Part shown: piece after piece, positions 5,520 through 5,652 of the stretch
Layout: every line of letters starts with the position of its first letter
How positions within the stretch are numbered: the first letter of the stretch is position 1
NCBI RefSeq assembly: GCF_003334315.1
Contig: NZ_QOWR01000093.1
DNA: 5,652 nt
Strand: one strand, 5' to 3'
Source: Escherichia coli
Lineage (GTDB): Bacteria; Pseudomonadota; Gammaproteobacteria; Enterobacterales; Enterobacteriaceae
Position numbers and translations under genes: made by a program
Notes under the pieces: model-generated
The model's database searches: none
Seen by the model: only the letters and a program-made list of their open reading frames with translations
Told to the model about the DNA's origin: nothing

Positions 5520-5577
5520 TTATTGATACTGAACCTTGAAGGTCGCATCCGCATTAGCAGCACCCGGGGTTGCGGCC
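5520..5577 (-). pseudogene. fimA: fimA (major type 1 pilin), 3' terminal remnant of 18 codons plus stop, cut off by IS186
   Basis: Minus strand reads GCC GCA ACC CCG GGT GCT GCT AAT GCG GAT GCG ACC TTC AAG GTT CAG TAT CAA TAA = [22 protein letters not shown], the recalled FimA C-terminus. Immediately upstream in this frame is a TAG and sequence unrelated to fimA (the IS186 end). Confidence 0.85.
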
Positions 5578-5652
5578 CATAAGCGCTAACTTAAGGGTTG
5601 AACCATCTGAAGAATGCGACGCCTCGGTGCCTCGTTAAGACGATGCCTCGCG
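5578..5652 (-). mobile_element. IS186 (IS4 family) terminus, partial; element continues beyond the window's right edge
   Basis: Plus strand from 5578 reads CATAAGCGCTAACTTAAGGGTTGAACC..., which I recognise as the IS186 terminal inverted repeat. The flanking sequence CCCGGGGTTGCGGCCC fits the G-run/spacer/C-run insertion preference reported for IS186. Strand is assigned from the partial transposase-like frame below. Confidence 0.8.
5586..5652 (-). CDS. Probable C-terminal end of the IS186 transposase (partial; 5' end off-window)
   Basis: The minus-strand frame is open from the window edge and reads [25 protein letters not shown], ending inside the terminal repeat as is typical of IS4-family transposase genes. 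The assignment rests on recollection only. Confidence 0.4.

Follow-up and report, generated by a model that had tools for sequence, protein, structure and literature searches.

We consider it very likely that an IS186 element transposed into its preferred target GGGG(N6)CCCC at nucleotides 490–503 of fimA in this Escherichia coli genome, with its transposase gene co-directional with the fim genes and with the loss of type 1 pili. The stretch of DNA analysed, 5,652 nt long and hereafter called the window, breaks off within this element. Insertion at this fimA site is already known, and the event is a textbook example of IS186 using a published hot spot; the evidence below comes from the junction itself, from complete genomes that share it and from published insertions at the same nucleotides.

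Between its two ends, the window carries the type 1 fimbrial operon fimAICDFGH, recognized by gene order and identity (Table 1). Positions 204..5600 are 99.87% identical to strain 99-3165, in which the annotated genes are fimH, fimG (as 'fimbrial protein'), fimF, fimD, fimC, fimI and fimA. The backbone is non-K-12, with 99.2% identity to K-12 and 99.9% to isolates such as 13C1065T. Both window ends lie within multicopy insertion sequences, 204 nt of IS1 on one side and 75–77 nt of IS186 on the other, so the far side of neither can be deduced from the window, which was probably assembled from short reads and broken at the two IS copies.

Table 1. Features of the window, with strand and basis of assignment
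Feature	Position	Strand	Basis or remark
IS1 terminal 204 nt	1..204		99.5% identity to IS1 copies in L73 (L001), S1 (L004) and FMU073332 (L005)
fimH 5′ fragment, first ~57 codons only	205..375	-	Offset to fimH of locus L002 puts the start codon at 373..375
fimG, intact ORF	395..871	-	ORFs and RefSeq annotation of a 99.9%-identical locus
fimF, intact	911..1444	-	ORFs and RefSeq annotation of a 99.9%-identical locus
fimD, intact, 878 aa	1451..4087	-	ORFs and RefSeq annotation of a 99.9%-identical locus
fimC, intact, 241 aa	4154..4879	-	ORFs and RefSeq annotation of a 99.9%-identical locus
fimI, intact, 179 codons (RefSeq start)	4916..5455	-	Mechanical ORF extends to 5563
FimR2 sRNA homologue (fimA 3′ UTR)	5475..5509	-	K-12 b4838 annotation, sequences compared by eye
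fimA 3′ remnant, 18 codons and stop	5520..5577	-	TAA is 5520..5522 on the + strand; matches the K-12 fimA 3′ end
IS186 target motif GGGG(TTGCGG)CCC	5566..5578		Motif scan; K-12 empty site
GGTTGCGGCC, copy of the 10-bp target-site duplication	5568..5577		Duplicated across IS186 in complete genomes
IS186 right end	5578..5652	-	100% identity to MG1655 IS186A

The IS186 end and its target in fimA

The initial annotation had placed an IS186 terminal repeat at 5578, abutting the last 18 codons of fimA, and both halves of this description hold. The string CCCGGGGTTGCGGCCC lies at 5563..5578 of the + strand, which reads ...GCACCCGGGGTTGCGGCC up to 5577 and CATAAGCGCTAACTTAAGGGTTGAACC... from 5578 onwards. 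Positions 5578..5600 are the 23-nt terminal inverted repeat CATAAGCGCTAACTTAAGGGTTG, followed by 52 nt of non-coding sequence that belongs downstream of the transposase gene. Aligned to the annotated right end of IS186A in MG1655 (mobile element 15387..16731, 'insertion sequence:IS186A'), positions 5576..5652 are 100% identical over 77 nt, of which 5576-5577 match only because IS186A also adjoins a C-run; the stretch 5578..5652 is itself 100% identical to that end. Both the terminal inverted repeat and the sequence next to it are therefore those of the reference copy of IS186, a member of the IS4 family that RefSeq names 'IS4-like element IS421 family'. On the other side of the junction, translation of the - strand of 5520..5579 gives the last 18 FimA codons and the stop, as at the 3′ end of fimA in K-12. 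The resident IS186A of K-12 (locus L003, 15387..16731) is flanked by CGGGG AGTGAT CCC, another instance of GGGG-N6-CCC.

The target had also been proposed to fit a preference of IS186 for a G-run, a 6-bp spacer and a C-run, and it does: the motif in Table 1 sits directly on the IS end, and the element's first base doubles as the fourth C of the native CCCC. The uninterrupted coding strand of fimA reads GGGG CCGCAA CCCC at nucleotides 490–503, the window core TTGCGG being the reverse complement of the published CCGCAA. In K-12 the empty site GGGGCCGCAACCCC lies at NC_000913.3 4543604-4543617, and the window junction falls inside the matching motif. The motif by itself is not significant, since the window holds one GGGG-N6-CCC where chance would give 0.65, and at least one turned up in 69 of 200 shuffles. 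What is significant is its exact position at the IS terminus, together with the documentation of this very site as a hot spot.

That documentation comes chiefly from Lee et al. 2016 (NAR 44:7109, PMC5009759), who followed the movement of IS elements in mutation-accumulation lines of K-12. They give the IS186 target as GGGG(N6/N7)CCCC, find the full GGGG(N6)CCCC only 19 times in the K-12 genome and report 16 independent IS186 insertions, in both orientations, at GGGG(CCGCAA)CCCC of K-12 fimA (PMC5009759). Their hot spot coordinate, 4,541,627, equals 4543604 minus 1977, which we infer to be the offset between two K-12 reference versions, the paper's being the older; the window insertion is at the same fimA nucleotide position. 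Insertion at a GGGG(N6/N7)CCCC motif is seen in the window, and the accompanying duplication of 10–12 bp, which takes in the core and G/C bases beside it, in other genomes only. Further cases come from Hoeksema et al. 2018 (PMC6307192), in whose study most amoxicillin-adapted lines carry IS186 in fimA with a C-terminal deletion, and from Chou et al. 2015 (PMC4340650), who list 'fimA::IS186 (502/503)'. Three other papers, PMC3071312, PMC12956098 and PMC12107188, contain no IS186 insertion in fimA, though each mentions both IS186 and fimA. The fimA GGGG(N6)CCCC site is the best-documented hot spot of IS186 in a coding region.

The orientation of the element follows from strain L73, which has the identical junction and carries the transposase CDS on the - strand, the same strand as the fim genes. 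The transposase gene of the window's IS186 is accordingly expected beyond the window end, on the - strand and co-directional with the fim genes.

The same junction in complete genomes

The window reaches only 75 nt into IS186, and its far junction and target duplication are known from other genomes alone. We therefore searched 5426 complete E. coli genomes with a 61-nt junction probe made of 38 nt of fimA and the 23-nt inverted repeat. It was fully covered in 45 genomes, which carry IS186 at exactly this position; about 3060 further genomes match the fimA part of the probe only and hold the empty site. A longer probe showed 14 of these to be oriented as in the window; for the other 31, the longer match ends at the end of the inverted repeat, which places their IS186 in the opposite orientation, as confirmed by reading L73 and 99-3165. 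A probe for the opposite junction, made of the IS end and the 5′ part of fimA, was fully covered in 44 genomes.

These counts bear on whether the junction could be a chimeric join of the fimA read path to an IS186 copy from elsewhere in the genome. The contig does end in a multicopy repeat, the kind of sequence that assemblers handle least reliably, yet the break coincides to the base with the canonical IS186 terminus and lies inside the window's one GGGG-N6-CCC motif, and the junction is identical in 45 independently finished genomes and lies at a published hot spot. An assembly artefact is thus exceedingly improbable, and the earlier judgement in favour of genuine transposition is upheld.

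Loci were fetched from 14 of these genomes, and both junctions were read in 11 (23CRST047 is among those left out). A complete IS186 measures about 1.34 kb and codes for the InsL transposase; the element is 1339 bp long in 10 fetched loci, with a 1113-nt transposase CDS; in FMU073332 (L005, 4039..6154), it measures 2116 bp, with an IS1 nested inside IS186. Of the 11 genomes read base by base, 10 have exact copies of GGTTGCGGCC on both sides of the element, and beyond the far copy the sequence continues with CCGGTTGCAAAATA..., the remainder of fimA, fimS and fimE. A direct duplication of 10–12 bp had been predicted from the window, and this is what genomes with the identical junction contain: GGTTGCGGCC is 10 bp long, or 12 bp if the start of the IS is taken as ATAAG. 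If the window holds a simple insertion, its far junction would read …CAACCCTTAAGTTAGCGCTTATG (the other IS186 end) and then GGTTGCGGCCCCGGTTGCAAAATA. In 1919D3 (L009, 4378..4387), the far copy of the duplication reads GGGTGCGGCA, with two mismatches to GGTTGCGGCC, which could reflect a sequencing error, a later mutation or a different fimA allele acquired by recombination.

The initial annotation had left two outcomes side by side, namely that IS186 separates the fim genes from the fimA promoter and fimS switch or that these have been deleted. Separation is what 44 of the 45 same-junction genomes contain, with the 5′ part of fimA, fimS, fimE and fimB beyond the element, and deletion of these parts is found in one of the 45, strain S1. 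Because the far junction is present in 44 of 45, simple insertion is the rule for such junctions and secondary loss is a documented minority outcome. In S1, the junction and orientation are those of the window, and an IS1 cuts IS186 after about 330 bp; at L004 (NZ_CP010226.1, 6039..7110), a Kiwa-like defence gene and integrases take the place of the region from the fimA 5′ part to fimB. The arrangement looks like the boundary of an island or a deletion.

S1 is the precedent for a second course of events in the window genome, in which IS186 inserted at the hot spot and its far side was lost or rearranged afterwards, either through deletion or inversion between IS copies or because another IS truncated it, so that the fimA 5′ part, fimS, fimE and fimB are no longer adjacent. 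An active IS1 is present in this fim cluster of the window genome (1..204), and both window ends lie in repeats. Such a loss, however, occurs in only one of 45 same-junction complete genomes, and that genome belongs to a different lineage: S1 had been considered a close relative on the strength of its shared orientation and only 3 mismatches in the proximal 2.9 kb, but was rejected as such because it differs by 32 mismatches over 5447 nt and has an intact fimH. We therefore regard later loss of the far side as unlikely and simple insertion as the preferred reading.

Recurrence of the insertion and comparison with known systems

In the 14 sampled complete genomes, flank haplotype and orientation combine in at least 8 ways, which indicates that the fimA site has been hit repeatedly in wild strains. 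One flank haplotype is found in both orientations (EcPF7 and LC-1302 versus LR-03 and 23CRST047), and the annotations contain five different protein accessions for the truncated FimA. The backbones closest to the window (99.9%, for example 13C1065T) match only up to 5578 and are without this junction, and the closest occupied genomes are an ETEC-like group with the element in the opposite orientation and 3–4 differences per 2.9 kb. Judged from these sequences, the window is most likely yet another independent hit. Some of the insertions in isolates may have arisen during laboratory passage or culture.

With 45 of 5426 genomes occupied, in both orientations and on several backgrounds, what had been an observation in the laboratory now applies to natural and clinical isolates as well. 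One could go further and propose that the fimA GGGG(N6)CCCC site is a recurrent natural mutational 'off' route for type 1 pili, independent of fimS, in which FimR2 and fimICDFGH lose their coupling to the phase switch and, with IS186 oriented as in the window, would be driven by read-through from its transposase gene; we consider this proposal speculative and quite improbable. Were such insertions selected and the output of FimR2 dependent on their orientation, the known hot spot would have a small new regulatory consequence. The known picture of IS186 and fim is unchanged by this case.

The closest known system is the K-12 hot spot (PMC5009759), which has the same 14 bp at fimA nucleotides 490–503, the same element and both orientations. 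Its cases come from laboratory mutation-accumulation lines, whereas the window has a non-K-12 backbone. The laboratory-evolved fimA::IS186 mutants (PMC6307192, PMC4340650) likewise carry IS186 in the 3′ part of fimA and a C-terminally truncated FimA, but the papers regard the insertion as a laboratory mutation that may be adaptive, whereas the window comes from a sequenced isolate with a second IS in fimH.

Two further systems offer looser parallels. The fimA site, lying inside a coding sequence, may be set beside the lon promoter of E. coli B, which is reportedly an IS186 hot spot as well; that site follows the same pattern of G-run, short spacer and C-run and is hit recurrently in either orientation, but it is a promoter site at which insertion lowers Lon expression. 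Insertions of IS1 or IS5 in fimE or fimB are known from K-12 laboratory strains. There, too, part of the fim cluster is knocked out by an IS, as in L73 and FDAARGOS_1249, but the genes hit are those of the switch recombinases and the bias of phase variation is altered, whereas here the C-terminus of the structural subunit is removed.

Expected consequences for FimA, FimR2 and type 1 pili

With the far side as in the 44 genomes, the predicted order in the window genome, read in the direction of fim transcription, would be the fimS promoter, fimA codons 1–167, the IS186 left end, the transposase gene and the right end, followed by the last 18 codons of fimA, FimR2, fimI-C-D-F-G and the fimH fragment. 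In L73 and 99-3165, translation of the upstream fimA fragment gives FimA residues 1–167 followed by HKR and a stop. The upstream fragment of the window genome would encode the same product, without the C-terminal β-strand and the penultimate tyrosine. In chaperone–usher pilins, capture by FimC and donor-strand exchange depend on the C-terminal strand and the conserved penultimate tyrosine. The truncated FimA would be expected neither to be held by FimC nor to polymerize, the subunit would be degraded and no pilus rod would form.

To our knowledge, the only promoter of the fim operon is the one in fimS. The insertion would place 1.34 kb of foreign DNA between this promoter and fimR2-fimICDFGH, so that polarity would be expected to lower or uncouple their expression. 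The initial annotation's proposal that the downstream genes would depend on read-through or on an outward promoter of the IS is reasonable, and the most plausible source of any residual expression would be read-through of the co-directional transposase gene. A consensus scan of the - strand found no promoter-like or terminator-like site in or near the fimI-facing end of IS186, with totals at the level of shuffled sequence, and a literature search for an outward promoter at IS186 ends returned nothing relevant. These expectations for FimA folding and operon polarity draw on general knowledge of chaperone–usher pilins and of IS polarity.

Also affected would be FimR2, a 35-nt sRNA released by RNase E from the fimAICDFGH transcript (PMC9723502). 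The window homologue, identical to K-12 b4838 at 34 of 35 positions when compared by eye, begins some 59 nt beyond the IS186 insertion on the downstream side, and the element severs it from the fimS promoter. Scanning 5380..5652 against Rfam, for FimR2 and for other RNA families, returned a chance-level match only.

At the other end of the window, an IS1 terminal repeat ends with ...GGCAGCATCACC at position 204 and directly abuts fimH about 57 codons past the start codon; from this junction, the fimH adhesin gene too is evidently disrupted or deleted. Taking the truncated FimA and the IS1 cut in fimH together, our analysis implies that the strain should be without type 1 pili. A search of the 5426 complete E. 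coli genomes did not find the IS1/fimH junction; three apparent full-coverage matches were rejected, each consisting of two separate pieces 300–600 bp apart. The intact state of fimG, fimF, fimD, fimC and fimI suggests that inactivation of the cluster was recent.

For annotation, the strain is best scored as lacking type 1 pili despite its intact fimI, fimC, fimD, fimF and fimG. Loci L001, L002 and L007–L016 each have a fimA CDS of 513 nt that PGAP labels 'type 1 fimbrial major subunit FimA' instead of marking it as a pseudogene. With a truncated fimA of 170 aa annotated as an ordinary gene, the defect is invisible in gene-presence tables. In genome scanning, a contig end at CATAAGCGC beside a G-run/C-run is a recognizable signature of IS186 hot spots.

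Some same-junction genomes carry further lesions in the cluster. In L73 (L001), fimE carries an IS1 and fimD is frameshifted (9499..10657 and 3053..5688), and in FDAARGOS_1249 (L011, 5361..6061) fimE carries an IS5. The added IS damage in FMU073332, L73 and FDAARGOS_1249 fits continued decay after a first IS186 hit.
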